64,000 bases of DNA from Deltaproteobacteria bacterium (GCA_009692615.1 SHYW01000004.1:8273-72272), one strand, 5' to 3'; shown: positions 8,469 through 59,993, counted from the first letter of the stretch. The notes: generated by a model from the letters alone, not told the origin. Program-made: numbers and translations.

Positions 8469-8539
8469 GTCAGGCCCAAACCTGTCGTAACTTGGCCGTC
8501 GCAAAATTTTCTACAATTCAGTGAATCGCGAATAACTCC

Positions 8540-15510: not shown

Positions 15511-15524
15511 AATTGATGAACACG

Positions 15525-15596
15525 TGTAGGGGCGACCGGCGGTCGCCCTTGCCCTTACCCTCACCCCTGCCCTCTCCCATCGGAATGGGCGAGGGT
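15525..15596. repeat. composite repeat: family B hairpin (gtaggggcgaccggcggtcgccc) plus family D element (ccctcaccc..ccctctcccatcggaatgggcgaggg)
   Basis: Family D copies also occur at 48647-48740 and 60950-61036. Here it overlaps the predicted ATG of the downstream solute-binding protein. Confidence 0.55.
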
Positions 15597-19869: not shown

Positions 19870-19900
19870 CCTACTCGTGCCTCACGCCTCAAGCCTAATT

Positions 19901-21619: not shown

Positions 21620-21729
21620 CGCCTGCCCTCGAGTTGCGCATGAATGTAGAGTTGCATAACCAAAACTAAGAAGGGCCAGCGCTATGGCCGGCCCTTCTTT
21701 ATTCACTAATCAATGGCGCTTTTCAACGA

Positions 21730-22743: not shown

Positions 22744-22878
22744 CGCATCCTCCGACTCAATCAACTCGGCATTTCGCGATCGGGGTATGAACCCCGCTCG
22801 CGACCAAAGGGGATGCTCGCCCCCTTTGGAAACCCCATTTAGTTGTGCCCGCCGCAAGCAGCGGGCAATATTAGATTT

Positions 22879-22922
22879 AAACAAAAAACTACCGACGCGC
22901 TCTGGCTAAGTCAAGCCGTCGG
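22879..22922 (-). terminator. candidate intrinsic terminator for upstream solute-binding protein gene
   Basis: Minus strand forms ccgacg..cgtcgg stem, followed by tagttttttgttt. Confidence 0.35.
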
Positions 22923-22930
22923 CTGAAAAG

Positions 22931-24016: not shown

Positions 24017-24059
24017 AAACACCTCTTGGACTATCCAGTTAAAATTGACAATCTAATTC

Positions 24060-25043
24060 TCAGCCGACAATCTCACGCACCATGCGAACAACTTTCTTGC
24101 GCGCCTCTTGCGTCCCCGTCGGCAACACGATCGGCAGGTCGAGCCCGCCCTTGGTGAACGCTTCGAGCTGTTTGGCGCATTCATTCGGCGTCCCAGCCAC
24201 CGAGTGGGCGAAGACCACTTCATCGCTGATAAATTTCTTCGCCGTGTCCCAATCGCGCTTGCCCACCGCGGCGGCCAAACCTTCTTGATCGACCTTGCCG
24301 CCGCCCAAGCGGATATTCTCGGCGTGGTGCACGTTGCGAAAAATATATGCAAGAAAATGTTTATTCGCTTCGATGGCTTCCTTGGCGCTGTCCGAAACTG
24401 CAGCAGTGACGAAGCCGGCGACATCGACATTAGTCGCCGCCTTACCGCCCTTGCCTGCGCCAACAGCGATATCATCGGCGCATTTACGAATATAGCCCGG
24501 CGCGCAGCCCGCCGACAACAACACGCCGTCGCCGATCTCGCCGCCCAGTCGCAACATCAGCGAACGCACTGCGGTGATATACATCTTGATCGGCGCCGAG
24601 GGCACGAAGCCCATCTTTGCGCCGTTGACCTGAAACATCTTGCCTTGAAAATTCACCGTCTCGCCTTTGAGATAGCGGCGCAGGATGTCGACATACTCGC
24701 GCATGGTCTGCAACGGATGGGGCGACTCCATGCCGGCTTCTTTCAAAGCTGCGGCGTTGCCAGTACCCGGACTCGCGATCACCCGGCCGGGAGCAAACTC
24801 GTCCATGGTGGCGATCGACATGGCGGTGATGATCGGATTGCGCGAATACGGACTCATCGGCGCCGCCGCGACTTTGATTTTACTGGTTCGCGCCAACAGC
24901 GCCATCGAAGTGGTGAAGGAATCGCGAAAACAGAGATGATCCGACATCCAGATCGAGTCCATGCCGATTTCATCCGCCAGCTGAGCGAGTTCGATCATCT
25001 CTTGAATCGAATAAAAACCATCAAAGCACAGACCCACGCGCAT
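24060..25043 (-). CDS. LLM class flavin-dependent oxidoreductase (F420/FMN luciferase-like)
   Basis: 327 aa, with ..GMDSIWMSDHL.. Confidence 0.8.
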   Translation of the reverse strand: MRVGLCFDGFYSIQEMIELAQLADEIGMDSIWMSDHLCFRDSFTTSMALLARTSKIKVAAAPMSPYSRNPIITAMSIATMDEFAPGRVIASPGTGNAAALKEAGMESPHPLQTMREYVDILRRYLKGETVNFQGKMFQVNGAKMGFVPSAPIKMYITAVRSLMLRLGGEIGDGVLLSAGCAPGYIRKCADDIAVGAGKGGKAATNVDVAGFVTAAVSDSAKEAIEANKHFLAYIFRNVHHAENIRLGGGKVDQEGLAAAVGKRDWDTAKKFISDEVVFAHSVAGTPNECAKQLEAFTKGGLDLPIVLPTGTQEARKKVVRMVREIVG

Positions 25044-25053
25044 AATCTTGCTC

Positions 25054-26160
25054 CTAAAATCCTTCCGCTAAAATCTTACCGAGATTTTCCGGTGCAACGT
25101 TGGCCAAGCCCATCTTTCCCAACGTCAAACCTTCCGTGCGAAAATCGATGCCCAGCGCCGTCGACGCCAGCGTGATCAGCGCATCCATCACCGGAGTCGC
25201 AACGCCGAGCAGTGTGCCGATCGCCGCCATCGGCACCAGACCATAACCTACATCCTCACGAATGTAGCGGTGATCGAGTGCCGGCGGTGACTTGATCGTG
25301 AAATTCGCTTCGCTGTTGTGAATCGCCTCATAAGCCGATCCCGAATCCCGCGCCGCGCTCGTGGTCAAGCCAGCCTGATGAAAAATATCGACGAAGCGTA
25401 ACGGCGGAAGGCCGAGCAACTTGGCAATCGTCAAACGCTCCCGGTCCACAGCGTCGATCCACGCACCGATCGCCGGCGTGAGACCTTCGCGGTAATAGAG
25501 AAAATCTCCGCCAGTCTTTTCGATCCAGCCAGCGTTACCGAGAGTCCCCGCCGGATGCATGAGCGCATTGATATTCGACAACCCGGTTTCCAGCACGTTG
25601 GCGGCGGCAACGACATTAGGAAACACTTGCTGGATCTCGCTGACAAGCTCAGCCGAATGCTTCCCAGGAAACGCCGCGCAGCGCAAATTCGTCGTGCGCC
25701 GATAAACTTCCACGCGGCCGAATTGCGGCATGCGGCAGATATAAGTGAGCGTCACGGTCTCGCACAGCCGCACCGACGCTTTGCAGCCAAGCATACGCAA
25801 GAGATTGGCAAAATGCAGCGCGCCGCCGGTGTGGCCGGGGTTGAGCAGAATCCGCTGGCCGTCGGTGAGGTAATTGGCCAGGCCTTTCGCCAAATACTCA
25901 TGCCCCACTGCCGGCGTCGCGATGACGATCAGATCGACACCCTGCACCACCGGCGGCAAATGCGGACTCATGAAAAACGGCGCGGCCTTTTTGCTGACGC
26001 CGTTTTCAATCAGCTCGATTTCGCCAAGCTTGGCGAGTTTCGCGATCGTACTTTCCGAGCGCGCGAACAGCCGCACTTCGAAACCACGCAGCGTCAGGTC
26101 GGCAGCCGCGGCACAACCGCCGTTGCCTGCGCCCAGAATCGCGATTTTCTTGATGGTCAT
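25054..26160 (-). CDS. NAD/NADP octopine/nopaline (opine) dehydrogenase family protein
   Basis: MTIKKIAILGAGNGGCAAAADLTLRGFEV.. Rossmann N-terminus. The ORF-track 5' extension of 157 codons is Arg-rich nonsense. Confidence 0.7.
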   Translation of the reverse strand: MTIKKIAILGAGNGGCAAAADLTLRGFEVRLFARSESTIAKLAKLGEIELIENGVSKKAAPFFMSPHLPPVVQGVDLIVIATPAVGHEYLAKGLANYLTDGQRILLNPGHTGGALHFANLLRMLGCKASVRLCETVTLTYICRMPQFGRVEVYRRTTNLRCAAFPGKHSAELVSEIQQVFPNVVAAANVLETGLSNINALMHPAGTLGNAGWIEKTGGDFLYYREGLTPAIGAWIDAVDRERLTIAKLLGLPPLRFVDIFHQAGLTTSAARDSGSAYEAIHNSEANFTIKSPPALDHRYIREDVGYGLVPMAAIGTLLGVATPVMDALITLASTALGIDFRTEGLTLGKMGLANVAPENLGKILAEGF

Positions 26161-26360
26161 GGCGATGTCTAAACCGGCGACAACTTGGAATTGTCCGCTG
26201 CGCTGGTTTTTCTTCGCGTCATAGCGGCGCAGGTCGGTATCCATCTTCCTTCGTTGCCAACGCACCACCACCCCTGGATGCCGGCCTGCGCCGGCATGAC
26301 CAATACGCGGATAACCACGCGACGTGTGCAATCCTTCATAATTTGAGACCGCGACAAGAA

Positions 26361-27515
26361 CTACGAAATCCGATAATGCTTGATCTTGTCTTCGTCCAAC
26401 TCGATGCCGAGCCCCGGCTTTGACGAAACGATCACCTCGCCGTCGGCGTATTCGAACGCTTCGGTGATGACATCGTCCGAATAATAAATCCCCGCGATGC
26501 CGCCATGGCCTTTGCCCTTGGGCGTCGACACCGGCACGACGCAGCCGTACGTTACGACGCCGGTCGACGCCGCGAGGTGAATATTCGCCGCGTTGCCGAC
26601 GCCGGTTTCCACAGAACCGTTGACATTGCACTTGAGCCCCGCCGCTTCCGCCACCGCGGCAACTTTTTTGCCTTTGAACATGCCGCCGGGTTTAGTCGTG
26701 TAGAGGGAAATCACATCGGCGGCTTTTTTCTGGATGATCTCGATCACGTCCTGCGCCGTCCAAGCGCTTTCATCCGCCATGATCGGCGTGTCGACTCGGC
26801 GCACTACTTCAGCCATCTGATCGATGCCCTCCACCGGCTGTTCCATGTAAAGCAGATTATATCTTTCCATCTCGCGAATGATTTTCACCGCGGCCTTCGC
26901 CGTCGGATAGCCTTGATTGGCGTCGACGCAAATACTTAGGTCGGGACCGATCGCCGTGCGAATCTGTCTGACTAACTCGACATCGCGTTTTTGCTCGACG
27001 CCGCCCTTGAGCTTGATCGTCTTCACGCCCTCAGCTTTAGCTTGCAACGCTTCCTCGACCGCCTTGTCAATTTCCATCAAGCCAAGACTATGAGCGATGG
27101 GAATCCGCTCGCGAAACAATCCGCCGAGCAATTGATACGCGGGGACGTTCAAGGCTTTGCCGACGACATCGTAAAGCGCCGCGTCGATGGCCGCTTTGCA
27201 ATAGGGATAGCCTTTCACCGCCTTATCCATCAGGCCGTGAATCGATTCGAATCGGCTCGGATCCTGGCCGCTCAGTGCCGGTGCGAGAATGTCGTTGATG
27301 ATATGCGCCGTGGTCTGCGGCGTCTCGCCGAAATATTTCCCATGATCGCCGCCCCAGTCTTTCAGCACCGGCGCTTCGCCGAGACCGATCAAGCCTTGGT
27401 CGGTGTAAAGTTTGATGATGACATAGACACCGATGGGCGTCGTCAAACTCGCCCACTGATGCACGCGTCGCGTCGGCAGGCGAATCGGAATAGTTTCAAT
27501 CTTGGTGATTTTCAT
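26361..27515 (-). CDS. enolase superfamily, mandelate racemase/muconate lactonizing enzyme family protein
   Basis: ..KLKGG..CVDANQGY..LYMEQP..IMADES.. metal ligand pattern. Confidence 0.8.
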   Translation of the reverse strand: MKITKIETIPIRLPTRRVHQWASLTTPIGVYVIIKLYTDQGLIGLGEAPVLKDWGGDHGKYFGETPQTTAHIINDILAPALSGQDPSRFESIHGLMDKAVKGYPYCKAAIDAALYDVVGKALNVPAYQLLGGLFRERIPIAHSLGLMEIDKAVEEALQAKAEGVKTIKLKGGVEQKRDVELVRQIRTAIGPDLSICVDANQGYPTAKAAVKIIREMERYNLLYMEQPVEGIDQMAEVVRRVDTPIMADESAWTAQDVIEIIQKKAADVISLYTTKPGGMFKGKKVAAVAEAAGLKCNVNGSVETGVGNAANIHLAASTGVVTYGCVVPVSTPKGKGHGGIAGIYYSDDVITEAFEYADGEVIVSSKPGLGIELDEDKIKHYRIS

Positions 27516-27596
27516 TTAAAGCGACAACCTCGGTAACGCATAGACATCTACTTCTGGATATCAGCACCAACAACCCACAGCGCTCTCCGAATCTTA

Positions 27597-27697
27597 CCTC
27601 CTCTCCCTTGACGGGAGAGGACAGAGGTGAGGGTGCCAGAATCTTTCAATACCCCTCACTCTAACTCTCTCCCGCAAGGGGAGAGAGAACCGGAATC
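27597..27697. repeat. repeat family E copy (ctctcccttgacgggagag / gaggtgaggg..cccctcactc / ctctctcccgcaaggggagagag)
   Basis: Related copy at 62708-62815. Shares gggtgaggg arms and the cggaatcg motif with family D. Confidence 0.5.
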
Positions 27698-27721
27698 GAT
27701 GCGCGAGCCACGGCCCGAAAA

Positions 27722-28834
27722 CTAACCCACTCTCAACAAACTATCCGTCGGCGTCACATCGGACAACAACTCGCAGCCCTTATCCGTCACGCAAAACATA
27801 TCCTTGTTCTGCATACCGAAGCGGCCGGGAATATAAACCAACGGCTCGAAGGCGCCGACCATGCCCGCTTCGACGATTTCATCGCCATATCGTCCCATGT
27901 ACGGCTCTTCATGCAAATGCAAGCCGATGCCGTGGGCGACGAAGCTGATCGGCTCAAATCCGAGCTCGCTGAACTTTGCCAAAAATTTACGGTAAACCTC
28001 CGGACAACAGGCGCCCGGCTTGATCAAATCCATGACTAAATATTTACACTCGATCAGGTTCGACCAAATCTTATACTGCTCCTCTGTCGCGTCGCCGACT
28101 ACCGCCGTACGGCACACGCCGGTCAAATAGCCGCTCTTCTGGCCGAAGATTTCCATGCGAATGATGTCGCCGTGCTTTAGCTTACGATCCGTCGGCCCGA
28201 CGTTGGGAAACTGGCTGCGCTCACCCGAGGCGATGATCATGAGTTTATAGCTCTCCGCGCCACCGCCAAACAAAGAAGTCAGCAAGGTCCCGGCCAGCTC
28301 CATCTCGCTCATGCCGACTTTCGCCGAGCGTAGCGCCGTACCCAACGCGTGATCGGTAAGTTTGCTCAGCGAGCGAAGCAGAGCCAGCTCCCCCGCCGTC
28401 TTGATCTGCCGCGCCTTATTGAAAATCCCATCGGCCGCTGACCAGTTGGTATGCGGCAAGCGTTTTTGCAGCGTCGTAAAATCCTTCGCCGGCAGAAACT
28501 CCAACTCGATGGCAACCTTGCCGCGATCTAATTTTAGATCAACCAACGCATCGGCCAGCTTATCCATCGGATCGTCGGAGAACTCCCGATAGATGCGCAA
28601 ATCGTCGATGCCGGCATGAGCCTTGACCGTGGTCGCCTCCATATCGATAGCAACCATAGAAATTTTTCCGTCCGCTGTCACAATACAAGCCGCATGGCGC
28701 CAGCGCATGAGCGACTGCGACGGCACCACGAAACCGGAAACGTAGGTTACGTTTTCTGGCGAAATCGCGACGATGGCGTCTAAACCTCCGGCGACGATTC
28801 GTTTCCTTAAGCGCGCGACAATTTCTTGATCCAT
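27722..28834 (-). CDS. M24 family metallopeptidase (creatinase/Xaa-Pro peptidase-like)
   Basis: 370 aa, with ..HGIGLHLHEEP.. Confidence 0.75.
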   Translation of the reverse strand: MDQEIVARLRKRIVAGGLDAIVAISPENVTYVSGFVVPSQSLMRWRHAACIVTADGKISMVAIDMEATTVKAHAGIDDLRIYREFSDDPMDKLADALVDLKLDRGKVAIELEFLPAKDFTTLQKRLPHTNWSAADGIFNKARQIKTAGELALLRSLSKLTDHALGTALRSAKVGMSEMELAGTLLTSLFGGGAESYKLMIIASGERSQFPNVGPTDRKLKHGDIIRMEIFGQKSGYLTGVCRTAVVGDATEEQYKIWSNLIECKYLVMDLIKPGACCPEVYRKFLAKFSELGFEPISFVAHGIGLHLHEEPYMGRYGDEIVEAGMVGAFEPLVYIPGRFGMQNKDMFCVTDKGCELLSDVTPTDSLLRVG

Positions 28835-29433: not shown

Positions 29434-30080
29434 TCACGCCCAATACGTCGTCCGGTCAACGGGAATATGCTGCAACACTTCGCCCGGCACGAAATCTTCC
29501 AAGCGAATGCGCGTCAGCGCTTCGTCGGGACATTTTGACACCGGCGATAACGGTCGATCTAATGGCTTCGTCGCATCGACGATCATCGCCGAAGTTTTGC
29601 GCGGGTCGACCATCGATGGATCGATCAAGCTACCGCGCATGATTTGCTTGATGATCGACACTTGCAGATGCGGTTGGACGCGAGTCGCCAGAGCCCAAAG
29701 AATTTCCGTCGGATTGTAAACGTCGATGTCTTCGTCGAAGACAAAAACACTCTTGCACCAATCCCAGGTCAGCACCGCGGCCGCGGCCCGGCCTGGATCG
29801 CCTTCGGAAAGTTTTTTCATCGAGATGAAAACGTTCAACAGCGCGTGGCGGCCGCTGGTGCAGACGGTTTCGACATTGGGCACAGCCTCCCGGGCGCGGC
29901 GCAAGTAGGCGCCTTCGGGCGCCAGGTCCATCCACGGTTTGTCACCTTCCGGTGTGAGTATCGAAGTGTGCTGCGCGTCGCACGCAGCCGCTTGGCGCAA
30001 ATGGATAGCGAAGGTCGCGGCGATGGGACACCGGACAAAGCGCTTGCACTTCAACGGGACCTTGCCGACCAAAGTGACGT
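29434..30080 (-). pseudogene. 5'-truncated UbiD-family decarboxylase paralog (C-terminal ~215 aa only)
   Basis: ..VFVFDEDIDVYNPTEILWALATRVQ.. aligns with the C-terminal half of the intact UbiD at 12754-14325. The upstream ORF-track N-terminus is not UbiD-like and collides with a Sel1 fragment. Confidence 0.5.
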
Positions 30081-30094
30081 AAGAGGCCGACAGC

Positions 30095-30357
30095 CACTGG
30101 CTAATCGTCTTTATGCAGGCACCGGAGTCGAAAAGAATCCTGCCGAAGCGGTTCGTTGGTATCGCGCCGCGGCTGAACAAGGAAATGCAAACGCGCACTT
30201 GACTGTAGGTCTAAGATTGGTCGACGGTATCGGCGCACCGAAAGACGAGAAGCAGGGAGTTGGCTGGTATCGCCGTGCAGCGGAACAGGAACATCCGCAA
30301 GCTCGATTCAGTATGGCGTGGCCCCTCGGAGCTGGGCAAGGCGCACTTAAAGTATAG
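30095..30357 (+). pseudogene. Sel1-repeat protein C-terminal fragment
   Basis: LANRLYAGTGVEKNPAEAVRWYRAAAEQGNANAHLTVGL..GVGWYRRAAEQEH.. gives two Sel1 repeats with no start codon and no signal peptide. Confidence 0.4.
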
Positions 30358-35408: not shown

Positions 35409-36416
35409 ATGGGAAGACACCTTTTCCCAATCATCCTAACAGCCGTTCTGCCATTCTCAACGAGTTTTGGCGCCGAACGCTCGCAATTGGATCGTGCCAA
35501 GCGTGAAGGAAAGCTGGTTGCCTATTTGGCGATGAACGCCGCCGACGCGGTCACCGTGCAAACCAGCTTCGAGAAAAAATATCCCCAGATCAAAGTCGAA
35601 CTGGTGCGCATGGGCGCGCCGGCGATCTTGCAGCGCATTCTCACCGAGCATCGCGGCGGCAAAGTATTTACCGACGTCGTGCTCGGCTTTGGCTTTGTCC
35701 ACTACGAGCTGGCGCAGCAAAAGCTCTTGGCCAAATACGAATCGCCGGAGCGAAACAACTATGTCGCGCAGTTCAAAGACACTGAAGGTTATTGGACCAA
35801 CGTCATGCCGATCGTCCACACCGTCGCCTACAACAGCAAAATGTTGTCGCCGGCGGAACTGCCGGCGCGCTACATCGACCCGCTGCAAGCCAAATGGAAA
35901 GGCCGGCTCGGTTTGAACAGCAACAATCTAATGTTCCTGGCCGCCATGACGACCCATTTCGGCAAGGAAGCCGGCAGGGACTTTTTGCAGAAACTCGCCG
36001 CCCAGTCGCCACAAGTTCGCGGCGGCGGCAGTTTACTCTTAACCCTCGTCGCCGCCGGGGAGTTTCCCTTGGGATTTTCGATCAACGAAAACAACGTCGA
36101 AAATCTAAAACTCAAAGGCGCGCCGGTGGATTGGTTAAAGCCGATCGATCCGCTCTACGGCGAGTTGGTGTCCATCGGCGTCACGGCGGGCGCGGCCCAT
36201 CCAAATGCCGCGAGGTTATTTATCGATTACGTCTTATCGAAGGACGGCCAAGAGCTGTTTCGCAATCTGGGAAAAATTCCCGCGCGCAGCGATGTCACGC
36301 CCAAGATCAGCATTGATCGCGACAAGATCCGCATGATCCCGCCCGAAGAAGCGGCGCGCACCCAATACTACGCCAAACTGTTCGACTATCTATTCGTGAA
36401 ACGGGCGGCTAAATAA
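35409..36416 (+). CDS. family-1 extracellular solute-binding protein, Fe3+-type (third paralog)
   Basis: Signal peptide, and ..AKREGKLVAYLAMNAAD.. Confidence 0.65.
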   Translation: MGRHLFPIILTAVLPFSTSFGAERSQLDRAKREGKLVAYLAMNAADAVTVQTSFEKKYPQIKVELVRMGAPAILQRILTEHRGGKVFTDVVLGFGFVHYELAQQKLLAKYESPERNNYVAQFKDTEGYWTNVMPIVHTVAYNSKMLSPAELPARYIDPLQAKWKGRLGLNSNNLMFLAAMTTHFGKEAGRDFLQKLAAQSPQVRGGGSLLLTLVAAGEFPLGFSINENNVENLKLKGAPVDWLKPIDPLYGELVSIGVTAGAAHPNAARLFIDYVLSKDGQELFRNLGKIPARSDVTPKISIDRDKIRMIPPEEAARTQYYAKLFDYLFVKRAAK

Positions 36417-37614
36417 CTTTTTCGCGCTTGAGCGCTTCGATAGCGGCGCCGTCGTAGCCAAGCTCGGCGAGAATCGCCTCATTGTTTTCACCGAGCCCAG
36501 GAATCCGATCGTAGCGCGCCTCGCTTTTCGACATCTTGAGCGCGTTGGCGATCACTGGAACTTTGCCTACCGGCGATTCGGCTTCACGGATGAGTTTGCG
36601 CGCGATCACTTGGGGATGGGCTAACACTTGGGCAATGCCACGCACGATACCGTGCGGCAACTCGGCTTTCTTCAGTTGCTCAAGCCAAAATTTGTGGTCG
36701 CGGGCGGAAAAAATATCCTCGATCGTCTCTTCCAGCAGACCCCGGTTTGTCCGCCGATCTTGAACCGTGGCAAAACGCGCGTCGGTAAGCATCTCGGGTT
36801 TTTCAATGACGACTTTGCAGAAGACATTCCAATCCGCCGGACTTGCCACCGCCAGGTTGACGTATTCGCCGTCCCCCGCCAGATACGGCCCGTAGGGACA
36901 AACATAATGATGACGCATGCCGACGCGCCCAGGCTCTTCGCCGGCGTGCCAGTAGTGATGGGGAAAATATCCGAGCCACGAGACAATGGAATCGAGCATG
37001 GACACGTCGACCCATTGTCCCTCGCCGGTCTTCTCGCGCTGGTACAAAGCGAGCAGTAGACCGATCGCCGCATACATGCCGGAAGCGATGTCGGCGATGG
37101 CGATGCCCGCTTTCGCCGGCTTGTCGGGATAGCCGGTGGTGGCAATGATCCCGCCCTCGCCTTGAATCAAAAGATCGTAAGCCTTCACATCGCGATACGG
37201 CCCGTCTTGGCCATAACCGGACAGCGAACAATAGATCAGCCGCGGATTGAGTTCTGAAAGCTTTTCATAGCCGAGTCCAAGCCGGCCGGCGACGCCAGGC
37301 GCATAATTCTCGAAGAAAATATCCGAGCGCTTGGCTAACTCTTGCAGAATCTCGCGCCCCTTTTCTTTTTTAACATTGACCGTCAAACTGCGCTTGTTGC
37401 GATTCAACCAAACGTAACCGGAAGACAATCCTTTCACGACCGAATCCCAGGAACGAATCACATCGCCGACACCGGGCCGCTCGACTTTGATCACTTCCGC
37501 GCCCATATCGGCGAGCAAGCAAGTTGCAAACGGGCCGGAGAGCACCTGCTCGAATGCGAGTATCTTCACGCCATCTAATGCCCGCGTAGGTTTCGAATTA
37601 CTTGCCACAGCCAC
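36409..37614 (-). CDS. CaiB/BaiF family III CoA-transferase
   Basis: ..GVKILAFEQVLSGPFATCLLADMGAEVIKVE.. GTG start. Confidence 0.8.
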   Translation of the reverse strand: MAVASNSKPTRALDGVKILAFEQVLSGPFATCLLADMGAEVIKVERPGVGDVIRSWDSVVKGLSSGYVWLNRNKRSLTVNVKKEKGREILQELAKRSDIFFENYAPGVAGRLGLGYEKLSELNPRLIYCSLSGYGQDGPYRDVKAYDLLIQGEGGIIATTGYPDKPAKAGIAIADIASGMYAAIGLLLALYQREKTGEGQWVDVSMLDSIVSWLGYFPHHYWHAGEEPGRVGMRHHYVCPYGPYLAGDGEYVNLAVASPADWNVFCKVVIEKPEMLTDARFATVQDRRTNRGLLEETIEDIFSARDHKFWLEQLKKAELPHGIVRGIAQVLAHPQVIARKLIREAESPVGKVPVIANALKMSKSEARYDRIPGLGENNEAILAELGYDGAAIEALKREKVI

Positions 37615-37634
37615 CCCTTAAGTATTGAACAGAA

Positions 37635-38144
37635 TTACTTCTTGTCTTCTTTGATTTCCGGAAACAAATCGTTCTTCGGCGCGAACGCTTTCTTCCACAC
37701 CATCACGCTACGCGCGTAGTCGATGACGACTTTGCCTTCTTGCTGAATGCCGCGGGTGCGCACTTTGATAATGCCCCACTGCGGCTTGGAACTGGACTCG
37801 CGCTTTTCAAGCACTTCCGATTCGGAATAAAGGGTATCGCCGGCGAACAGCGGATTGGGTAGTTTGATGCCGTCCCAGCCCAGCGCGAAGCCATTCTCGC
37901 TCACATCCGCCACGCCCATGCCGGCGACGATGGCAAGAGTCAAAGCGCTGTTGATCAGACATTTACCGAACTCGGTGCGCTTGCCGTACTCGTTGTTGAA
38001 ATGAATCTGATTGGTGTTGTTGGTGAGCAATGTGAACCAAATGTTATCCGCTTCGGTGACCGTCCGTCCCAAGCGGCAGCGATAGACGTCGCCGATTTCA
38101 AAGTCCTCAAAAAAACGCCCTTCCCAACCCGGCTTAATCGCCAT
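37635..38144 (-). CDS. MaoC-like (hotdog-fold) enoyl-CoA hydratase/dehydratase
   Basis: 169 aa, matching the itaconyl/mesaconyl-CoA hydratase type of MaoC family. Confidence 0.75.
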   Translation of the reverse strand: MAIKPGWEGRFFEDFEIGDVYRCRLGRTVTEADNIWFTLLTNNTNQIHFNNEYGKRTEFGKCLINSALTLAIVAGMGVADVSENGFALGWDGIKLPNPLFAGDTLYSESEVLEKRESSSKPQWGIIKVRTRGIQQEGKVVIDYARSVMVWKKAFAPKNDLFPEIKEDKK

Positions 38145-38209
38145 GACGCGCCTCCTGTTTAAGCAAAAACAACATTACGCTATAGTCTAGGTAATTATAG
38201 GGGGAAGTA

Positions 38210-39370
38210 ATGGATTTCAACCTGACCACCGAGCAGCAGCAGATTCGCGACGAGATTAAAAAAGTCTGCAAAGAATTTCCCGACGCCTACTGGCGCAAGA
38301 TCGACAGCGAAAAAGCCTATCCTGATACATTCGTGAAAAAACTTAGCGATCTCGGCTGGCTGGCGGCGCTGATCCCCGAAGAATTTGGCGGCACCGGACT
38401 GGGCATCACCGAAGCGAGCATCATCTTGGAAGAGATCAACCACTCCGGCGGCGTCGCCACCGCATGTCATGCGCAGATGTATACGATGGGCACACTGCTG
38501 CGCCACGGCAACGACGAACAGAAGAAACGCTACCTACCGAAAATCGCCACCGGCGAGCTACGCCTGCAAGCCTTCGGCGTCACCGAGCCCAACGCCGGCT
38601 CGGAGTCGACGCGCATTCAAACCATGGCGGTGAAAAAAGGCGACCGCTACTTGATCAACGGCGAGAAAATTTTTATCTCACGCGTGCTGCAATCCGACTT
38701 GATGCTGCTGCTTGCCCGCACCACGCCGTATAACGAACTGAAGGACAAAACCCGCGGCCTGTCGGTCTTCATCGTCGATTTGAAAGCCAATCGAGAAAAA
38801 CTCGACGTAAAACCACTCGACCTGATGATCAACCATCACACCAACGCGCTGTTCTTCGATAATGTCGAAGTGCCGGTGGAGAATTTAATCGGCGAAGAAG
38901 GCATGGGTTTTCGCTACATCATCGACGGCTGGAACGCGGAAAGAATTCTCGTCGCCGCCGAAGCGGTTGGCGACGGCCGCTGGTTCGTTGAGCGCGCCGC
39001 CAAGTACGCTAGCGAGAGAAATGTCTTCGGCAAAGCCATCGGCTCGAATCAGGGCATCCAATTTCCCATCGCCAAAGCTTACGCCAATATCGAGGCAGCT
39101 GACTTAGTACGCTACCAAGCCGCGACCAAATTCGATCGCAAGGAAAAATGCGGCGCCGAAGCGAACCTGGCCAAGTATCTAGCGAGCGAAGCGGCTTGGG
39201 AAGCGGCGAATGCCTGTCTGACCACCCATGGCGGCTACGGCTTCGCGGCGGAATACGATGTCGAAAGAAAATTTCGCGAGACGCGTTTGCTAACCATCGC
39301 GCCGGTGAGCAACAATCTTGTGCTGGCTTATCTCGGACAACATGTGCTCGGCATGCCTAAGTCGTACTAA
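38210..39370 (+). CDS. acyl-CoA dehydrogenase family protein
   Basis: 386 aa, with ..FGVTEPNAGS.. and a C-terminal ..GGYGF..E.. catalytic region. Confidence 0.85.
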   Translation: MDFNLTTEQQQIRDEIKKVCKEFPDAYWRKIDSEKAYPDTFVKKLSDLGWLAALIPEEFGGTGLGITEASIILEEINHSGGVATACHAQMYTMGTLLRHGNDEQKKRYLPKIATGELRLQAFGVTEPNAGSESTRIQTMAVKKGDRYLINGEKIFISRVLQSDLMLLLARTTPYNELKDKTRGLSVFIVDLKANREKLDVKPLDLMINHHTNALFFDNVEVPVENLIGEEGMGFRYIIDGWNAERILVAAEAVGDGRWFVERAAKYASERNVFGKAIGSNQGIQFPIAKAYANIEAADLVRYQAATKFDRKEKCGAEANLAKYLASEAAWEAANACLTTHGGYGFAAEYDVERKFRETRLLTIAPVSNNLVLAYLGQHVLGMPKSY

Positions 39371-39454
39371 AAAAATGGAGCGCGGACATTGGAGCTCGGA
39401 CACTCCTGTCCGCGTATTTTCCTGAGCGGGTTAGAAAACCCGCGCTCCTTTAAC

Positions 39455-40657
39455 TCAAGATGCAAGACTCTTGGAATTTTCCCTCTTGCTCATCCTTCGC
39501 AACCACACCACACCGATAAGAAACAGCACTGTTGACCCCAACGAGCCAACCACGAACACGCTGGCGATGCCGGTGGCGTGAGCGATGAAGCCGCCGATGG
39601 ATGGACCGAGAATATTGCCCAGATCGCCGGCGGCGTTGTAAACACCCGAAGCCAAACCGCGGCGGACTTTCGATTCCGGTACGTCTTGGACTAAACCGAC
39701 CGCGTTCGCGACAAACACGATAGCGCGCATGAAACCCGACGCGACGTAGACGACGATGATCGTGCCGAAAGTAGAAAACAGCGGCACCAGCATCAAGATC
39801 AACGCTTGCAGCGGCAAACCGAGATAGGACAAGCCTTTGTGGCCGACTTTGTTGACCACATGGCCGCTGATTGGCCGGGTCACCGCATTGCAGCCGGCGT
39901 AGGCGGCGCGGATGATGCCGATTTGGGTCAGACTCATGCCGACCCCCAAGCCGTAGAGCGAAATGAACACGCCGCCCATTTGATGCAATAAATTTAAAAA
40001 CAACGCGACCAACACGACGAATGCCAACTCGGGTTCGAGCAAAGCTTTGAGTGAATCTTTAGAAGTCAGCTTCGCCGTTTCCTTAGCTTTCGCCACGCTC
40101 TCGCCGATCGCCTCAGGGCCATGGAGCAGCCACAAAAGCGCCACCGCCACCAACGACAAGAACGCCCCCAATTGAAACGTCCAGCCATAACCCCAATGAT
40201 CGGCGATCAAGCCGCCGAAAAAATTTCCCGTCGAGTAACCCAACGCCAGGGTGCCGACGTAGTAGCCCATGGCGTGGTTGCGGTTTTCATCGGGGGATAA
40301 AGAATCGACGTAGAACGCCATGTAAAGCGTAGTCACCGCACTGTAGGCAAAACCGTTGAGGCAATGGACGATGGCGAAGGTCCAGCTGCTGAGCGCGAAG
40401 CTATAGCAATAATTGGTCACGCCCATCGCCAGCACCGCCAGGGAAACCAGCAGCCGTGCTCTGTTCCGAACGTAGAGCATGCCCACCGGCAGGCGCGCCA
40501 TCAACGCGAAGATCGGCCCGAGGGAGATCAACGTGCCGATCAACGCCACTGGAATATGCATATGATCGAGATAAGGCGGGATCACCGTCGATGCCGAATT
40601 GCTTTGAATCGTCACCGCGACGATCGGCACCAGAAGTTTGACCGTGCTGAGCTTCAT
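39455..40657 (-). CDS. MFS transporter
   Basis: 400 aa with 12 predicted TM helices. Confidence 0.75.
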   Translation of the reverse strand: MKLSTVKLLVPIVAVTIQSNSASTVIPPYLDHMHIPVALIGTLISLGPIFALMARLPVGMLYVRNRARLLVSLAVLAMGVTNYCYSFALSSWTFAIVHCLNGFAYSAVTTLYMAFYVDSLSPDENRNHAMGYYVGTLALGYSTGNFFGGLIADHWGYGWTFQLGAFLSLVAVALLWLLHGPEAIGESVAKAKETAKLTSKDSLKALLEPELAFVVLVALFLNLLHQMGGVFISLYGLGVGMSLTQIGIIRAAYAGCNAVTRPISGHVVNKVGHKGLSYLGLPLQALILMLVPLFSTFGTIIVVYVASGFMRAIVFVANAVGLVQDVPESKVRRGLASGVYNAAGDLGNILGPSIGGFIAHATGIASVFVVGSLGSTVLFLIGVVWLRRMSKRENSKSLAS

Positions 40658-40877
40658 ATCCCAACAGTTATTCTCTAAAACTTTCCCGTCTTCAAGCGAA
40701 CGGCGGGAAAGATTTCTCCCAGGGGTCGAAATGACAGATGAGTCTTATTCAACTTCTGTCATCTCGAACGAAGTGAGAGATCTCGTCCTCAAAGGCAAAA
40801 CGGTCACTCAGCCAACCGACGACGTTAGACATTCGCCGCCCCTTCAGGTAAAAATTTCCGCCAAGGAGATTTTTCCC

Positions 40878-41762
40878 ATGGATTTGATCCGCTCGTGGAT
40901 GTTCGTGCCGGGACACCGGCAAAAGATGATCGACAAAGCGTTCGGCTTGAACGCCGACGCGATCATGCTCGATATCGAAGACGGCGTCGCGCCCAATGAA
41001 AAAGACGCCGCGCGCAAAAATATCGGCGAATCCTTGGGCCGCGCCAAAGTTCCCGTCTCCCCCGCCCGCTACGTGCGCATCAACTCCATCGGCCACCAGT
41101 GGATGGACGCCGACTTGGCCGCGGTTGTTCGTCCCGGTCTCGAAGGATTAGTCTGTCCGAAAGTCGACACCGTCGACGATGTGCGCAAAGTCGATGCGCT
41201 TTTGAACGAAATGGAACCGAAGAACCAAATCGCCAAGGGCAGCGTACGATTATTGATCGCCATCGAGAGCCCAAAGGGGCTATTCAATGCGCCGGCCATC
41301 GCCGCCGCGTCATCGCGCATCGTCGGGATCATTTTTGGCGCCGAGGACTTCGGCCGCGAGATCGGCCTACCCGCCGTACGGGAAGGCGAAGCACGAGATC
41401 TAATCTACGCCCGCTCAGCCATCGTCGTCGCCGCTGCAGCGGCTCACGTCCAAGCGGTGGACGGCGTCTGGGTCGATTTGAACGACACAGCAGGCCTGCA
41501 CGGCTTCGCCAAGCAGTCGCGCCAACTCGGCTTCTCAGCCATGTCGTGCATTCATCCCTCGCAAGTCGACGCGATCAATACGGTCTTCAGTCCGACCGCG
41601 ACGGAAATCGACTACTGTCAAAAAGTCCTGCAAGCGTTTGGAGAAGCGAACGCGCGCGGCGACGGCTCCATCGCTTTTGGCGGCCAACTCATCGACCGCC
41701 CCATCGTCGAGCGCGCCCGGCGCACCATCGACATGGCGAAGTCGTTGGGCATGATCCAATAA
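40878..41762 (+). CDS. HpcH/HpaI aldolase - citrate lyase beta (CitE)-like acyl-CoA lyase (citramalyl-/malyl-CoA lyase type)
   Basis: MDLIRSWMFVPG..IMLDIEDGV..LLIAIESPKG.. AAGGAG ribosome-binding site. The ORF-track 5' extension is discarded. Confidence 0.75.
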   Translation: MDLIRSWMFVPGHRQKMIDKAFGLNADAIMLDIEDGVAPNEKDAARKNIGESLGRAKVPVSPARYVRINSIGHQWMDADLAAVVRPGLEGLVCPKVDTVDDVRKVDALLNEMEPKNQIAKGSVRLLIAIESPKGLFNAPAIAAASSRIVGIIFGAEDFGREIGLPAVREGEARDLIYARSAIVVAAAAAHVQAVDGVWVDLNDTAGLHGFAKQSRQLGFSAMSCIHPSQVDAINTVFSPTATEIDYCQKVLQAFGEANARGDGSIAFGGQLIDRPIVERARRTIDMAKSLGMIQ

Positions 41763-41791: not shown

Positions 41792-42724
41792 ATGAAATTC
41801 AAATTGCCATTGTTGCTCGCCGCCGTCAGTCTCTTCACCATGGGCGCTGCCGCGCCGGTGCGCCTGACGCCGGTGAAAATCGCCGACAACGTTTATCTGA
41901 TGCAGCATTCCGGCGGGTCGGGCAATTCTACCGTAGTGTTCACCAACGACGGCGTGGTCGTGCTCGACTTCGCCATCGACAGCGCCGACCAAACCCTGGC
42001 GTTCATCCGGAAAACCACCGACAAAAAAATAAGATTTCTCATCACCTCTCACAGCGCCGGCGACCATGCGACTGGCTCCATGCACTTCCGTGAAGACAAA
42101 CCGATCTGGATCGGCAGCAAAAATCAGATCCACGATTTTCAAATGCAGGAGCTGAAAGATTTCAACGAGCGAAAAAATTCCGCCGACCCGCGCTTCGCGG
42201 CTTACAAAAAAGGCGACCTGGGCCAGCCCGATATCGGCATCGAAGCGCCGACGACGATTTACTTGGGGGGCCTGACGTTTCAGATCACTCCCGAGGGTCG
42301 CGGCCACAGCACCGGGGATTTGACCGTCTACATTCCGCAGAAACGCGTCATGCTCATGGGCGATCTGCTCGACACCGAGATTCATCCCGGCCAAGGCGAG
42401 TCGGGAGAAATTTTTTATTCCAACGTCAAAGGCTGGATTCAGATTCTCGACAACATCATGGCGCGCAATCTGCCGGTGGAGACGTTTGTTCCGGGCCACG
42501 GCCCCGCTCACTTGGGCAGAGGCGTAAAGGATTTAGAAGAGCAGAAACGCTATTTCGTCGTCATGCGCGACGAGGTGGCCAAGATGATCGCCGCGGGCAA
42601 GAGCCTGGAGCAAATCGAAAAAGAATTCAAAATTCCCCAAGAGTTCGCACACTATACTCGGCCCGAACGGCTGCGTTCGTTCTACAAACTTTTTTACAAT
42701 CAGTTGATGGAAACCGGTTATTAG
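41792..42724 (+). CDS. secreted MBL-fold metallo-hydrolase
   Basis: Signal peptide, HSAGDH variant of HxHxDH, and a later ..GHG.. site. Confidence 0.7.
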   Translation: MKFKLPLLLAAVSLFTMGAAAPVRLTPVKIADNVYLMQHSGGSGNSTVVFTNDGVVVLDFAIDSADQTLAFIRKTTDKKIRFLITSHSAGDHATGSMHFREDKPIWIGSKNQIHDFQMQELKDFNERKNSADPRFAAYKKGDLGQPDIGIEAPTTIYLGGLTFQITPEGRGHSTGDLTVYIPQKRVMLMGDLLDTEIHPGQGESGEIFYSNVKGWIQILDNIMARNLPVETFVPGHGPAHLGRGVKDLEEQKRYFVVMRDEVAKMIAAGKSLEQIEKEFKIPQEFAHYTRPERLRSFYKLFYNQLMETGY

Positions 42725-42737
42725 GGAGAGGGAATCA

Positions 42738-43784
42738 ATGAAACCCATCGTCGCAACAGTTCTCGTCACGTTAAGCATCGCCGGTTCGGCTTGGGCCCAG
42801 GGCAAGATGACCACCGAACAACTGGCCGCCTACGACAAACCCGACCGCGAGAAAGTGCTCTACGCCGGCGCTAAAGCCGAAGGCAAAGTCACTTGGTACA
42901 CCTCCCTGGCTGGCGATTCCTATAAAAAACTCGCCGCCGCGTACGAAGCGCGCTATCCCGGCGTGGCGGTGGAATCCTACCGCGCCACGCGCCAGGAGAT
43001 GAGCGCGCGCATCCTGGCCGAGTCCCAGGCCAAGCGCTACATCGCCGACACCATGGAGACGACGATTCCACTGTTAAAACTATTGAAGGACAACAACTGG
43101 CTGGTGCCTTATTATTTCTCGACCATCGCCAAGTATCCCGATAATGTCAAAGAAAAGGCGCCCAAGGGTTTGGTCTACTGGGCCATCGATCGCGAATCCC
43201 ACATCGGCCTCGCCTACAATAAAAATATCATCCCGCAGAAAATCGCGCCGCGAAACTACGAAGGACTGTTGCGCCCGGAATTCAAGGACAAGATCTCCTT
43301 CGCCGGTAGCGACACCGGCGTCACCGTCACCGGCGCCATGCTCAAGTTCAAAGGCGAGGAGTATGTCAGAAAGCTCAGAGCCTTAAATCCTTCGGTGCAC
43401 AACGTCTCCGGCCGCGCCTTGCTCGACATGGTGATCTCCGGCGAAGTTGGCGTCTCGCCGACGACGTTTCGCAATCACGTCGAAGTCTCGCTCAAAGCCG
43501 GCGCGCCCATCGAATGGATTCCCATGGACGTGGTGCCGTCCAACTCCGGCTCCACCGCGGTCCTCGCCAAGTCGCCTCATCCCAATGCCGCGTTGCTGTT
43601 GGCCGACTTCATCCTCGGACCGGGCGGGCAGAAAGTTCTCGAAGAGTACGAATACGGCAACCCGACCAAGGACTACGGCTTCAAGCGCTGGTATCCAGAA
43701 ACAGGCATGAGCGCCGAACAGATCGACAACCTCGAGAGCAAGTGGCGCACGATCATGCGCGACCTAACGCGACGGTCTTTCTAG
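42738..43784 (+). CDS. family-1 extracellular solute-binding protein, Fe3+-type (fourth paralog)
   Basis: Signal peptide, and ..AKAEGKVTWYTSLAGD.. Confidence 0.65.
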   Translation: MKPIVATVLVTLSIAGSAWAQGKMTTEQLAAYDKPDREKVLYAGAKAEGKVTWYTSLAGDSYKKLAAAYEARYPGVAVESYRATRQEMSARILAESQAKRYIADTMETTIPLLKLLKDNNWLVPYYFSTIAKYPDNVKEKAPKGLVYWAIDRESHIGLAYNKNIIPQKIAPRNYEGLLRPEFKDKISFAGSDTGVTVTGAMLKFKGEEYVRKLRALNPSVHNVSGRALLDMVISGEVGVSPTTFRNHVEVSLKAGAPIEWIPMDVVPSNSGSTAVLAKSPHPNAALLLADFILGPGGQKVLEEYEYGNPTKDYGFKRWYPETGMSAEQIDNLESKWRTIMRDLTRRSF

Positions 43785-44107: not shown

Positions 44108-45577
44108 ATGAACACCGGTTCATTTGTCGACGGCAAATGGTTTCACCCGAAGTCGAATCGATTGGTGCGTAATATTAACCCGGCGGATACCGATGAAGTA
44201 ATCGCCGAGTTTCCCGCCGCAACCGCCGAGGATGTCGCGCGCGCGATCGACGCGGCGCAAGCGGCATTTCGCGGTTGGAAGAAAACTCCCGGCCCCGAGC
44301 GCGGTCGGGTGCTGTGGCGCGCCGCTGACATCGCGCGCCAACGCGCTGACGAAATCGCCCGCACGCTCACCCGCGAAGAAGGAAAAATTCTCAAAGAAGC
44401 CAAAGGCGAAGTGATGAAAGGCATCTCGCTGTTGGAATTCTACGCCGGCGAGGGTTTTCGCATGCACGGCATGACGCTGCCGTCCGAAGCGCGCGATACG
44501 TTTACTTACACGATTCGCCGTCCGCTCGGCGTCGTCGGCCTGATAGCACCGTGGAATTTTCCCTGGGCGATTCCGGTGTGGAAATCCGCTCCTGCGCTGG
44601 CCGCGGGCAACTGTGTGATTTTCAAACCCGCTGAACTGACGCCCGCCACCGCCGCTCTGCTTACCGAGATTTACACAGAAGCCGGATTGCCTCCCGGAGT
44701 ATTCAACATGCTGGTCGGCGCCGGCTCGGTGGTTGGCGAAGCGATGGTTCACTCGCCGGTGCTGCGCGCGATCTCATTCACCGGATCGAACGAAGTCGGT
44801 GGCGCGCTCTACGCCAAGGCGGCCCAGCGCGGCGCTAAAGTAACCTGTGAAATGGGCGGCAAGAACGCGGTCATCGTCATGGCCGACGCCGATCTCGACA
44901 AGGCGGCCATCGCCATCCACGGCGGCGCCTTCGGCTCCACCGGCCAACGCTGCACGGCGACTTCGCGCGTGATCGCGGCGCCCGCCGTCAAAGACGCGCT
45001 GGTCGAACGACTGGTGGCGGCGGCGAAAAACATCACAGTGGGTCCCGGTCTCGACGAGTCGGTCGATATGGGTCCGGCGGTCGACAACAAACAATGGAAA
45101 ACCGATCTCGATTACATCGCCATCGGCCAGCAAGAAGGCGCGCGTCTGCTGCTCGGCGGCAAAGCGCCGCAAGAGCTTGGCAAAGGTTATTTCGTCGAGC
45201 CGACGATATTCGACAACGTCACGCCGGCCATGCGCATCTTCAAAGAAGAAATCTTCGGCCCGGTGCTCGCAGTCACCACGGCGAACAATCTCGACGAAGC
45301 GCTCAGCTACGCCAACGGCGTCGAGTATGGCCTGACGACGTCGATCTTCACGGAAAATATCGACACGATCATGAACTTCGTCGAGGAAGTGGAAACCGGC
45401 ATGGTGCACGTCAACGAACCGACGATTGGCGGCGAAGCTCAACTACCCTTCGGCGGCACTAAGGCCACCGGCGTCGGCGAGCGCGAGATGGCGGTCGAGG
45501 GACTGAACTTTTTCACTGAGTTGAAAACCGTGTTTATCAACTACTCCGGCAAGGCGGAGAGGTTGATGATTCGGTGA
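44108..45577 (+). CDS. NAD(P)-dependent aldehyde dehydrogenase
   Basis: ..[18 protein letters not shown].. catalytic Glu and Cys motifs. Confidence 0.85.
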
Positions 45578-59923: not shown

Positions 59924-59993
59924 GCGAAACTGAATCACTACCCGCCTTTGGCATTAGTTGACAGTCTCCTCACGCCCATGTTTAGTGACCGTC

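Follow-up and report, generated by a model that had tools for sequence, protein, structure and literature searches.

Introduction

Fungi form itaconate as an overflow product, and in immunity it serves as an antimicrobial. A gene cluster for its catabolism, the Pseudomonas/Cupriavidus type with the order ich-mcd-(VOC)-msi-ict-ccl (PA0878-PA0883), was reportedly described by Sasikaran et al. in 2014. The enzymes Ict, Ich and Ccl break down itaconate, with itaconyl-CoA hydratase as well as (S)-citramalyl-CoA lyase being the two enzymes specific for the itaconate/methylsuccinate pathway, and methylsuccinate was recognised as a substrate of the "itaconate" cluster only in 2025 (PMC12290011). In the same work, experiments identified PA0879 as an (RS)-methylsuccinyl-C4-CoA dehydrogenase, two convergent pathway variants were described, 96% of methylsuccinate isomerase was assigned to Pseudomonadota, and a single Binatia genome appears in the supplementary table (PMC12290011). 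Here we analyze a candidate cluster for this pathway, located at positions 36409-41762 of a 64,000-nucleotide stretch of DNA (the window) from a Deltaproteobacteria bacterium (GCA_009692615.1, SHYW01000004.1:8273-72272), which an earlier note made from the sequence alone had interpreted as a CoA-dependent catabolic cluster for C5-dicarboxylates of the itaconate, mesaconate or methylsuccinate type.

On the basis of homology and gene context, we consider it probable that this cluster serves the CoA-dependent catabolism of branched C5-dicarboxylates, chiefly itaconate and methylsuccinate, in Candidatus Binatia. The predicted pathway is already established for Pseudomonas and Cupriavidus, and the enzyme set appears to be a mosaic: a transferase and a dehydrogenase of the Pseudomonas type, a hydratase nearest to RipB, and a lyase from a separate clade resembling CitE and CLYBL.

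Results

Gene content and predicted pathway

An open reading frame (ORF) map together with Pfam and NCBIfam scans formed the basis of our gene inventory, in which all coordinates are those of the 64-kb window. The inventory agrees with the five genes named in the earlier note, encoding a family III CoA-transferase, a MaoC-type hydratase, an acyl-CoA dehydrogenase (ACAD), a major facilitator superfamily (MFS) transporter and a CitE-like lyase, and the ORF map likewise places the transferase and hydratase on the minus strand and the dehydrogenase and lyase on the plus strand.

In the pathway that we propose, the MFS protein would import the acid, and the family III CoA-transferase would use succinyl-CoA as donor to form itaconyl-C4-CoA or methylsuccinyl-C4-CoA. 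The ACAD would act on the latter, with its electrons presumably passing to an electron-transfer flavoprotein (ETF) encoded elsewhere. The small MaoC hydratase would then isomerize itaconyl-CoA and hydrate mesaconyl-C4-CoA to (S)-citramalyl-CoA, which the CitE-like lyase would split into acetyl-CoA and pyruvate.

The dehydrogenase and CoA-transferase are closest to Pseudomonas enzymes

Reference sequences were taken from a P. aeruginosa record found by tblastn in a plasmid collection (L012; loci used for comparison carry L numbers throughout), which contains the canonical PA0877-PA0887 block: LysR, Ich, Mcd, VOC, MmgE/PrpD, Ict, Ccl, TRAP and acs. Phmmer bit scores against these reference proteins are on the same scale as those from our search of the PDB.

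The ACAD gene (38210-39370, plus strand) encodes a 386-residue protein with all three ACAD domains in Pfam. Its product is 58.9% identical to PA0879 over 382 of 386 residues, with a score of 542 bits; the best solved ACAD structure reaches 213 bits only. The window protein also shares 60-63% identity with the ACADs that Ralstonia, Phaeobacter and Eleftheria encode in Pseudomonas-type clusters. In the window ACAD, PA0879 and all cluster-linked ACADs, the usual IYEG(T/S) motif with its catalytic glutamate is replaced by RETRL..AP(V/I)S, and the glutamate of an NAER motif (Glu244) is kept. We take Glu244 to occupy the position used by isovaleryl-CoA dehydrogenase, and presume its role as catalytic base from what is known of that enzyme and of long-chain acyl-CoA dehydrogenase. 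The identity to PA0879 and the common active-site signature are good evidence that the two proteins are orthologues; the ACAD matches PA0879 over its full length and its gene lies among those for the transferase, hydratase and lyase. We propose that it is an (RS)-methylsuccinyl-C4-CoA dehydrogenase (Mcd), as predicted from its sequence.

The CoA-transferase gene (36409-37614, minus strand; 401 residues; Pfam CoA_transf_3, E 9e-116) encodes a protein with 43.9% identity to P. aeruginosa PA0882 (Ict), scoring 353 phmmer bits. The best solved structures score 264 bits (10uh, SUGCT), human SUGCT 263 bits, and the E. coli proteins YfdE, Frc and CaiB 230, 199 and 106 bits, respectively. In a neighbor-joining tree, the window clade and the PA0882 clade form one group in 91 of 100 bootstraps, with YfdE, Frc and CaiB outside it (all trees used Kimura distances, small samples and 100 bootstraps). 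The phylogeny that the earlier note had suggested for separating Ict from Mct and other family III enzymes thus places the protein with PA0882, and not with the transferases for formyl-CoA/oxalate or carnitine. The catalytic Asp169 of Frc corresponds to Asp175 in the alignment, and the NCBIfam cut-offs for Frc are missed (285 against 442 bits, with the match in two stretches). Many close homologues are named "itaconate CoA-transferase" by JGI. We propose that the protein is an Ict-like succinyl-CoA:itaconate/methylsuccinate CoA-transferase. The direct comparison with the P. aeruginosa cluster, through PA0879 and PA0882, therefore supports the assignment of the locus to C5-dicarboxylate CoA catabolism.

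The transferase homologues are 399 residues long, and the ORF starting with GTG at 37614 is two residues longer, so the true start may lie two codons downstream. An exact-sequence look-up of the 401-residue ORF gave no match, because of these two additional residues.

These two proteins could also be read as a SUGCT-like transferase and a glutaryl-CoA dehydrogenase-like ACAD acting on glutarate or another straight-chain dicarboxylate. Besides the match to human SUGCT, the transferase scores 272 bits against the succinate-glutarate CoA-transferase model and the ACAD 249 bits against the Desulfococcus-type glutaryl-CoA dehydrogenase model, and the Ict of C. necator has trace activity with glutarate. 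However, both model scores fall far under their cut-offs (750 and 470) and also under the scores to PA0882 and PA0879. To our knowledge, moreover, CitE-type lyases cannot cleave 3-hydroxyglutaryl-CoA, whose hydroxyl-bearing carbon lacks a carboxylate. We regard a glutarate-type pathway as extremely improbable. A reading as leucine/3-hydroxy-3-methylglutaryl-CoA degradation was rejected, with scores below cut-off and no carboxylase among the annotated neighbors.

The hydratase is predicted to belong to a MaoC subfamily nearest to RipB

The hydratase gene (37635-38144, minus strand) encodes a single-domain MaoC (hot-dog) protein of 169 residues that matches MC_hydratase and MaoC_dehydratas in Pfam. 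Its best NCBIfam match is RipB_Ich, with 180 bits over the full length (cut-off 340); the next family scores 73 bits. This comparison uses the RipB_Ich model score in place of an authentic RipB sequence: in a tblastn search of the plasmid collection, all listed annotated matches carry generic MaoC names and none is a bona fide RipB. Similarity to PA0878, the Pseudomonas Ich, is not detectable. The protein is 59% identical to the cluster-linked MaoC protein of Thermus thermophilus pAA2-2c and 46% identical to that of Natronorubrum. Its motif N43-T-x-x-I-H48-F is like that of the C-terminal domain of the mesaconyl-CoA hydratases 8hgn and 4e3e, and is not the canonical D-x-N-P-x-H. JGI names the homologues "itaconyl-CoA hydratase" or "acyl dehydratase", and some of the 90%-identity clusters contain thousands of sequences.

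Judged by these matches, the protein appears to represent an uncharacterized MaoC subfamily whose nearest known family is Yersinia RipB/Ich. Gene context and the motif like that of mesaconyl-CoA hydratases support a role as itaconyl-CoA hydratase, and we propose that it is an Ich-like, RipB-related itaconyl-CoA isomerase/mesaconyl-C4-CoA hydratase.

The resemblance to mesaconyl-CoA hydratases also bears on the second route that the earlier note had offered. On that route, as known from the ethylmalonyl-CoA pathway and the methylaspartate cycle, the ACAD would dehydrogenate methylsuccinyl-C1-CoA, the hydratase would act on mesaconyl-C1-CoA, and the CitE-like protein would be a beta-methylmalyl-CoA/malyl-CoA lyase that yields glyoxylate and propionyl-CoA. 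The hydratase does match MC_hydratase and has 8hgn, a beta-methylmalyl-CoA dehydratase, as its best solved match (121 bits), and the window lyase matches the malyl-CoA lyases 5ugr (131 bits) and 4l9y (114 bits). Against this, the ACAD is orthologous to the C4-specific PA0879 and has 386 residues, while the solved 551-residue ACAD 6es9, which we take to be the Mcd of the ethylmalonyl-CoA pathway, scores only 160 bits. The hydratase is a single domain of 169 residues and not a double domain of about 350, and its 180 bits to RipB/Ich compare with 73 bits (cut-off 560) to the haloarchaeal 2-methylfumaryl-CoA hydratase. The lyase reaches 85 bits against the malyl-CoA lyase model (cut-off 500), compared with 242 for citE and 177 for RipC, and the transferase only 244 bits against the succinyl-CoA:mesaconate transferase model in NCBIfam (cut-off 700). 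Of the two routes, the one from itaconate and methylsuccinate through C4-CoA esters to citramalyl-CoA is thus favored and the one through mesaconyl-C1-CoA to beta-methylmalyl-CoA disfavored; we consider the latter very unlikely.

The lyase is a stand-alone CitE-like protein

The lyase gene lies on the plus strand at 40878-41762 (Pfam HpcH_HpaI, E 9e-55). The ORF as listed mechanically (40638-41762, 374 residues) begins with TTG at 40638. Its Pfam domain is not reached until residue 85, however; an AAGGAG ribosome-binding site stands before an ATG at 40878, and close homologues, among the matches listed, are nearly all 294 residues long; we therefore place the start at 40878. The best solved match is human CLYBL (PDB 5vxc; 143 bits, residues 5-290), and the lyase segments ESpkG, GAEDF and liDrP are identical to CLYBL at the alignment positions of ESxxG, GxEDF and xiDxP. 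In NCBIfam, the lyase scores 242 bits against citE (TIGR01588; cut-off 443), its top match, 177 against RipC_Ccl (cut-off 375) and 85 against malyl-CoA lyase. In JGI annotation it is called "citrate lyase subunit beta/citryl-CoA lyase". No homologues of CitD, CitF, CitC or CitX were found in the window, in the related loci L001 and L004, or in 80 further genome loci, and the lyase is therefore unlikely to be part of a citrate lyase complex. We propose that it is an (S)-citramalyl-CoA lyase, which would yield acetyl-CoA and pyruvate.

Evidence that weighs against the proposed pathway

Several observations count against the itaconate/methylsuccinate assignment, and the first of them concern the lyase. 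Among the references it is nearer to E. coli CitE (37.8% identity, 190 bits) than to RipC (3qll, 123 bits) or PA0883 (103 bits, 31% identity). Its position in the tree is weak: it falls in its own clade of cluster-linked lyases in 59 of 100 bootstraps, and this groups with CitE in 41 of 100. With deep branches at 60 of 100 or lower, the tree does not decide between Ccl, Mcl and CitE, the question for which the earlier note had called for it. None of the four enzymes reaches an NCBIfam equivalog cut-off, and all four belong to uncurated subfamilies. The hydratase attains about half of the RipB/Ich cut-off, and PGAP names its relatives only "MaoC family dehydratase". An identity of 44% within family III CoA-transferases does not fix substrate specificity, and the import role of the MFS protein is proposed from the position of its gene alone. 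Finally, the 64-kb window contains no methylsuccinate isomerase, regulator or ETF gene; given that there is no isomerase, use of both methylsuccinate enantiomers would hinge on the stereoselectivity of the transferase.

The earlier note had held that its interpretation would fail if the transferase grouped with formyl-CoA:oxalate or carnitine transferases and the lyase with true citrate lyase beta subunits. The outcome is split: the first grouping is contradicted by the transferase tree, and as to the second, CitE is the most similar reference for the lyase. The lyase result slightly weakens the interpretation without refuting it, because the grouping with CitE has a bootstrap value of only 41, the partner genes of citrate lyase are missing, and CLYBL is itself a CitE-like citramalyl-CoA lyase.

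Two further readings would take the lyase for a genuine beta subunit of citrate lyase, or the genes for neighbors with unrelated functions. The top rank of citE among the NCBIfam matches would fit the former, and the alternating strands of the window genes the latter. The citE score nevertheless lies well under its cut-off, genes for CitD, CitF, CitC and CitX are missing from the window and 82 related loci, and the four enzyme genes occur together in several phyla, often in one same-strand operon. We give neither version any appreciable credence.

The gene set recurs in Binatia and in other phyla

The whole block, in the order ALDH-SBP-MBL-lyase / MFS / ACAD / MaoC-CoAT-LOG (ALDH, aldehyde dehydrogenase; SBP, solute-binding protein; MBL, metallo-beta-lactamase fold; CoAT, CoA-transferase), is found again in Binatia contigs including L001, a 6.7-Mb contig, and L004 (GCA_016874755.1). 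Close homologues with 85-94% identity are very abundant in soil and sediment metagenomes and, where named, come from Candidatus Binatia or "Deltaproteobacteria" metagenome-assembled genomes (MAGs). When the genome collection was scanned with a hydratase alignment, at least 586 relatives came up; 80 loci from many phyla were obtained, onto which we mapped all window and reference proteins. We counted neighbors where the hydratase match has 4 kb or more of flanking sequence in each direction, requiring at least 55% identity for the ACAD and at least 40% for the CoA-transferase and the lyase. At seven loci with a hydratase identity of at least 83%, the Mcd-like ACAD and the CoA-transferase are present in all seven and the window-type lyase in six; at ten loci with 67-83% identity, the corresponding counts are five, three and five.

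In compact operons of other phyla, a window-type lyase gene (50-68% identity) lies between the ACAD and MaoC genes. Same-strand ACAD-lyase-MaoC-CoAT operons occur in L019, L022, L025, L028, L037, L038 and L041, in MAGs labeled as Acidobacteriota, Alphaproteobacteria, Bryobacteraceae, Acidimicrobiia and Streptosporangiaceae. Since the block recurs in Binatia and the four genes form a same-strand operon in distant phyla, their clustering is not due to chance. Paraglaciecola (L046) has a minimal lyase-MaoC-CoAT set that mirrors the three-gene itaconate clusters of pathogens, and the ACAD-MaoC-CoAT set of Natronorubrum has an MmgE/PrpD gene in its vicinity.

MAG taxon labels are unreliable, with several loci of 80-95% identity labeled "Chloroflexota", "Klebsiella" or "Enterobacteriaceae"; at least the closest of these, such as L015 with its full Binatia block, are probably mis-binned Binatia.

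More distant relatives of the hydratase (54-66% identity) adjoin genes whose products share 63-66% identity with PA0881, the methylsuccinate isomerase (L060, L063 and L078), and others adjoin pairs of class I fumarase genes (L081, L088 and the Thermus plasmid L007). Class I fumarases catalyze the mesaconase reaction (PMC12290011), and the isomerase- and fumarase-linked relatives together point to branched C5-dicarboxylate metabolism.

These linkages bear on whether the same chemistry could serve a different acid, with the lyase cleaving another 3-hydroxy-3-carboxy-acyl-CoA derived from a related substrate that has not yet been described. Candidates would be (3S)-citryl-CoA, formed from tricarballylate or aconitate via tricarballylyl-CoA and aconityl-CoA, or malyl-CoA formed from fumarate. 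The nearness of the lyase to true citrate lyase beta and its JGI name would be in keeping with such a substrate, as would the uncharacterized subfamilies of the hydratase and lyase and the transferase's identity of only 44% to Ict. Yet the 59% identity of the ACAD to PA0879 and their common active-site signature suggest that the substrate is identical or closely similar, the relatives are linked to genes for methylsuccinate isomerase and mesaconase-type fumarases, and the CitE grouping of the lyase has a bootstrap value of only 41. We consider a different acid unlikely, and retain itaconate and methylsuccinate as the predicted substrates.

A broader reading of the distribution is that the gene set is a third version of the branched C5-dicarboxylate pathway, assembled independently in evolution, and the prevailing form outside Pseudomonadota (in Binatia, Acidobacteriota, Actinomycetota, Chloroflexota, Thermus and haloarchaea). 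In that case, its hydratase and lyase might not share the substrate range or stereochemistry of the known enzymes, and could for example permit direct use of (S)-methylsuccinate, or of C6 analogues giving citryl-CoA-like intermediates. We put this forward as a speculation that is doubtful at present.

Some hydratase relatives stand in other settings. Genes 78-82% identical to the window hydratase gene (L029-L036 and L039, several labeled Binatia) have no CoA-transferase, ACAD or lyase gene within 8 kb. A second cluster around these genes was considered and dropped: in L032, the one of these loci that was annotated in detail, the MaoC gene (7959-8504) lies beside regulators and a DNA methylase, with no metabolic neighbors. 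In the Actinomycetota loci L055, L061, L064, L075, L080, L082 and L084, hydratase relatives (57-61%) lie upstream of a different family III CoA-transferase, which is 33-35% identical to that of the window and forms a separate clade; this is followed by an MmgE/PrpD gene whose product is only 31-34% identical to methylsuccinate isomerase. The Actinomycetota trio may belong to a related, uncharacterized dicarboxylate pathway.

The transporter gene and intergenic regions

The MFS gene (39455-40657, minus strand; 400 residues; Pfam MFS_1, E 4e-49) has only generic NCBIfam matches, and we propose that its product imports the dicarboxylate substrate. The gene is found at the same position in L001, L004, L014 and L015 and is absent from distant clusters such as L019 and L024; in this Binatia sub-lineage it stands as an insertion between the genes for the ACAD and the lyase.

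The MaoC-CoAT operon and the ACAD gene diverge from a 65-bp intergenic region (38145-38209), as read from the sequence, which presumably contains divergent promoters; the Pfam scan and the annotation of neighbors showed no regulator gene adjoining it. A second divergent region of 220 bp (40658-40877) separates the MFS and lyase genes, and had been counted as coding through the over-long ORF starting with TTG. Hairpins lie between the convergent 3' ends of the ACAD and MFS genes. Scans of the window for tRNAs and Rfam families gave no match.

Flanking genes

Directly downstream of the lyase, where the earlier note had placed an MBL-fold hydrolase, is the gene for an exported MBL-fold protein (41792-42724, plus strand; 310 residues; Pfam Lactamase_B). 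It is followed in the same orientation by genes identified from Pfam and NCBIfam as an exported orphan solute-binding protein (42738-43784, plus strand) and an aldehyde dehydrogenase (44108-45577, plus strand). The three genes are kept with the cluster in L001, L004 and L015; beyond L014/L015, none of the other loci examined has them. The N-termini of the MBL and solute-binding proteins are signal-peptide-like, that of the MBL protein reading MKFKLPLLLAAVSLFTMGAAAP. The metal motif of the MBL protein is degenerate, HSAGDH, with alanine in place of the second histidine of HxHxDH, and its best matches are weak (the SoxH-related "quinoprotein relay system zinc metallohydrolase 2", 111 bits against a cut-off of 280, and PDB 8d2z, 64 bits). 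It is conceivable that this protein is a periplasmic esterase or lactonase feeding the pathway. We did not adopt a pathway role for the MBL, solute-binding and aldehyde dehydrogenase proteins: their genes are linked to the cluster only in close Binatia, the first two are apparently exported, and they have no informative characterized homologues.

In the Pseudomonas-type cluster of an Eleftheria terrae plasmid (L010), an alpha/beta-fold hydrolase gene (9506-10177) lies between the transferase and lyase genes, paralleling both the VOC protein PA0880, a proposed hydroxyparaconate lactonase, and the window MBL protein. Accessory hydrolases thus appear to have been recruited repeatedly to these clusters.

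On the other side, a solute-binding protein gene (35409-36416, plus strand) lies between the CoA-transferase gene and a LOG-like gene, its 3' end and that of the transferase gene sharing 8 bp. The related Binatia contigs L001 and L004 have the LOG-like gene immediately after the transferase gene, so the solute-binding protein gene looks like a local insertion or rearrangement.

Other features of the window

Ten solute-binding protein genes, an unusually large number, are found in the window (15513-16607, 21730-22884, 22931-24022, 35409-36416, 42738-43784, 54484-55479, 55589-56902, 58783-59757, 59958-60944 and 62826-63824), four of the SBP_bac_6 type and six NMT1/THI5-like. Most have no adjoining ABC permease or ATPase gene, and the only permease seen is at 19901-21706. 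A minus-strand block at 18682-28834 resembles a catabolic cluster for opines or modified amino acids, with an M20 peptidase, a fused ABC permease, two SBP_bac_6 proteins, a luciferase-like monooxygenase, an octopine/nopaline dehydrogenase-like protein, an MR/MLE enolase-superfamily protein and an M24 creatinase/prolidase. Two of the ORFs in this region, 25054-26631 and 26361-27515, overlap by 271 bp, and one start is probably over-called. A full-length UbiD-family decarboxylase is encoded at 12754-14325 (minus strand), and an ORF at 29434-30198 (minus strand) matches only the UbiD C-terminal domain and may be a truncated copy or wrongly delimited.

Discussion

Of the four enzyme families, two are already known, as is the pathway itself. 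New within the limited literature that we examined are the combination of a Pseudomonas-type Ict and Mcd with a hydratase related to RipB and a lyase from a third clade, and its wide spread outside Pseudomonadota. If the mosaic works as proposed, the breakdown of branched C5-dicarboxylates would extend well beyond Pseudomonadota, to abundant uncultured soil Binatia and Acidobacteriota as well as Actinomycetota, Thermus and haloarchaea, and would rely on uncharacterized hydratase and lyase subfamilies that the NCBI pipeline names only generically. This would improve the annotation of very abundant soil metagenome proteins and add enzymes for C5-dicarboxylate bioconversion, with no new chemistry.

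The locus resembles several described systems in part. With the Pseudomonas/Cupriavidus type it has in common the ACAD, an orthologue of PA0879, and the family III transferase, from a sister clade of PA0882. By contrast, its 169-residue MaoC hydratase has no similarity to PA0878, which is annotated "MaoC family dehydratase N-terminal domain-containing"; its lyase is only 31% identical to PA0883 and falls in another clade; and the window genes are split into divergent units. The window cluster lacks the MmgE/PrpD methylsuccinate isomerase, the VOC protein and the LysR regulator, and has an MFS transporter instead of TRAP. With no homologues of PA0878 or PA0881 detected by tblastn in the 64-kb window, it does not contain the five-gene set of the Pseudomonas type.

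The ripABC operon of Yersinia pestis and Salmonella is similar in the nearest family of the hydratase (RipB/Ich, an (R)-specific enoyl-CoA hydratase), in having a CitE-like lyase and in its three-step itaconate route. The window cluster differs from it in scoring 180 bits against a cut-off of 340 for RipB_Ich, 177 against 375 for RipC_Ccl and 123 for RipC itself, in carrying an Mcd-type ACAD that is absent from the Yersinia operon, and in its transferase, a CoA_transf_3 protein, RipA being presumably from a CoA-transferase family other than family III.

The citrate (pro-3S)-lyase complex does not fit the sub-cut-off citE score and the missing CitD, CitF, CitC and CitX genes, and the module of Mcd-C1, Mch and Mcl from the ethylmalonyl-CoA pathway or methylaspartate cycle does not fit an ACAD, hydratase and lyase that are all off-type. 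Human CLYBL, the mitochondrial citramalyl-CoA lyase, is like the window lyase in its motif residues and in being a stand-alone CitE-like CoA-ester enzyme without CitD or CitF, and differs in its low identity and its eukaryotic, vitamin B12-related context.

The suggestion in the earlier note that the cluster is a distinct variant is borne out, in that the hydratase is not of the Pseudomonas type, the transferase not of the Yersinia type and the lyase of neither. Aneurinibacillus sp. Ricciae_BoGa-3 is a cultured carrier of the gene set. Another parallel in a cultured organism is on plasmid pAA2-2c of Thermus thermophilus AA2-2, whose cluster encodes TRAP, a CoA ester lyase, GntR, class I fumarase alpha and beta, ACAD, CoA-transferase and MaoC. 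Its ACAD (60% identity), small MaoC protein (59%) and related transferase (45%) are like those of the window, and it differs in a lyase of another CitE-like type (31% identity), mesaconase-like fumarases, a GntR regulator and a TRAP transporter. Its predicted gene products show that the mosaic combination of Mcd, Ict and a RipB-like hydratase exists in a cultured organism.

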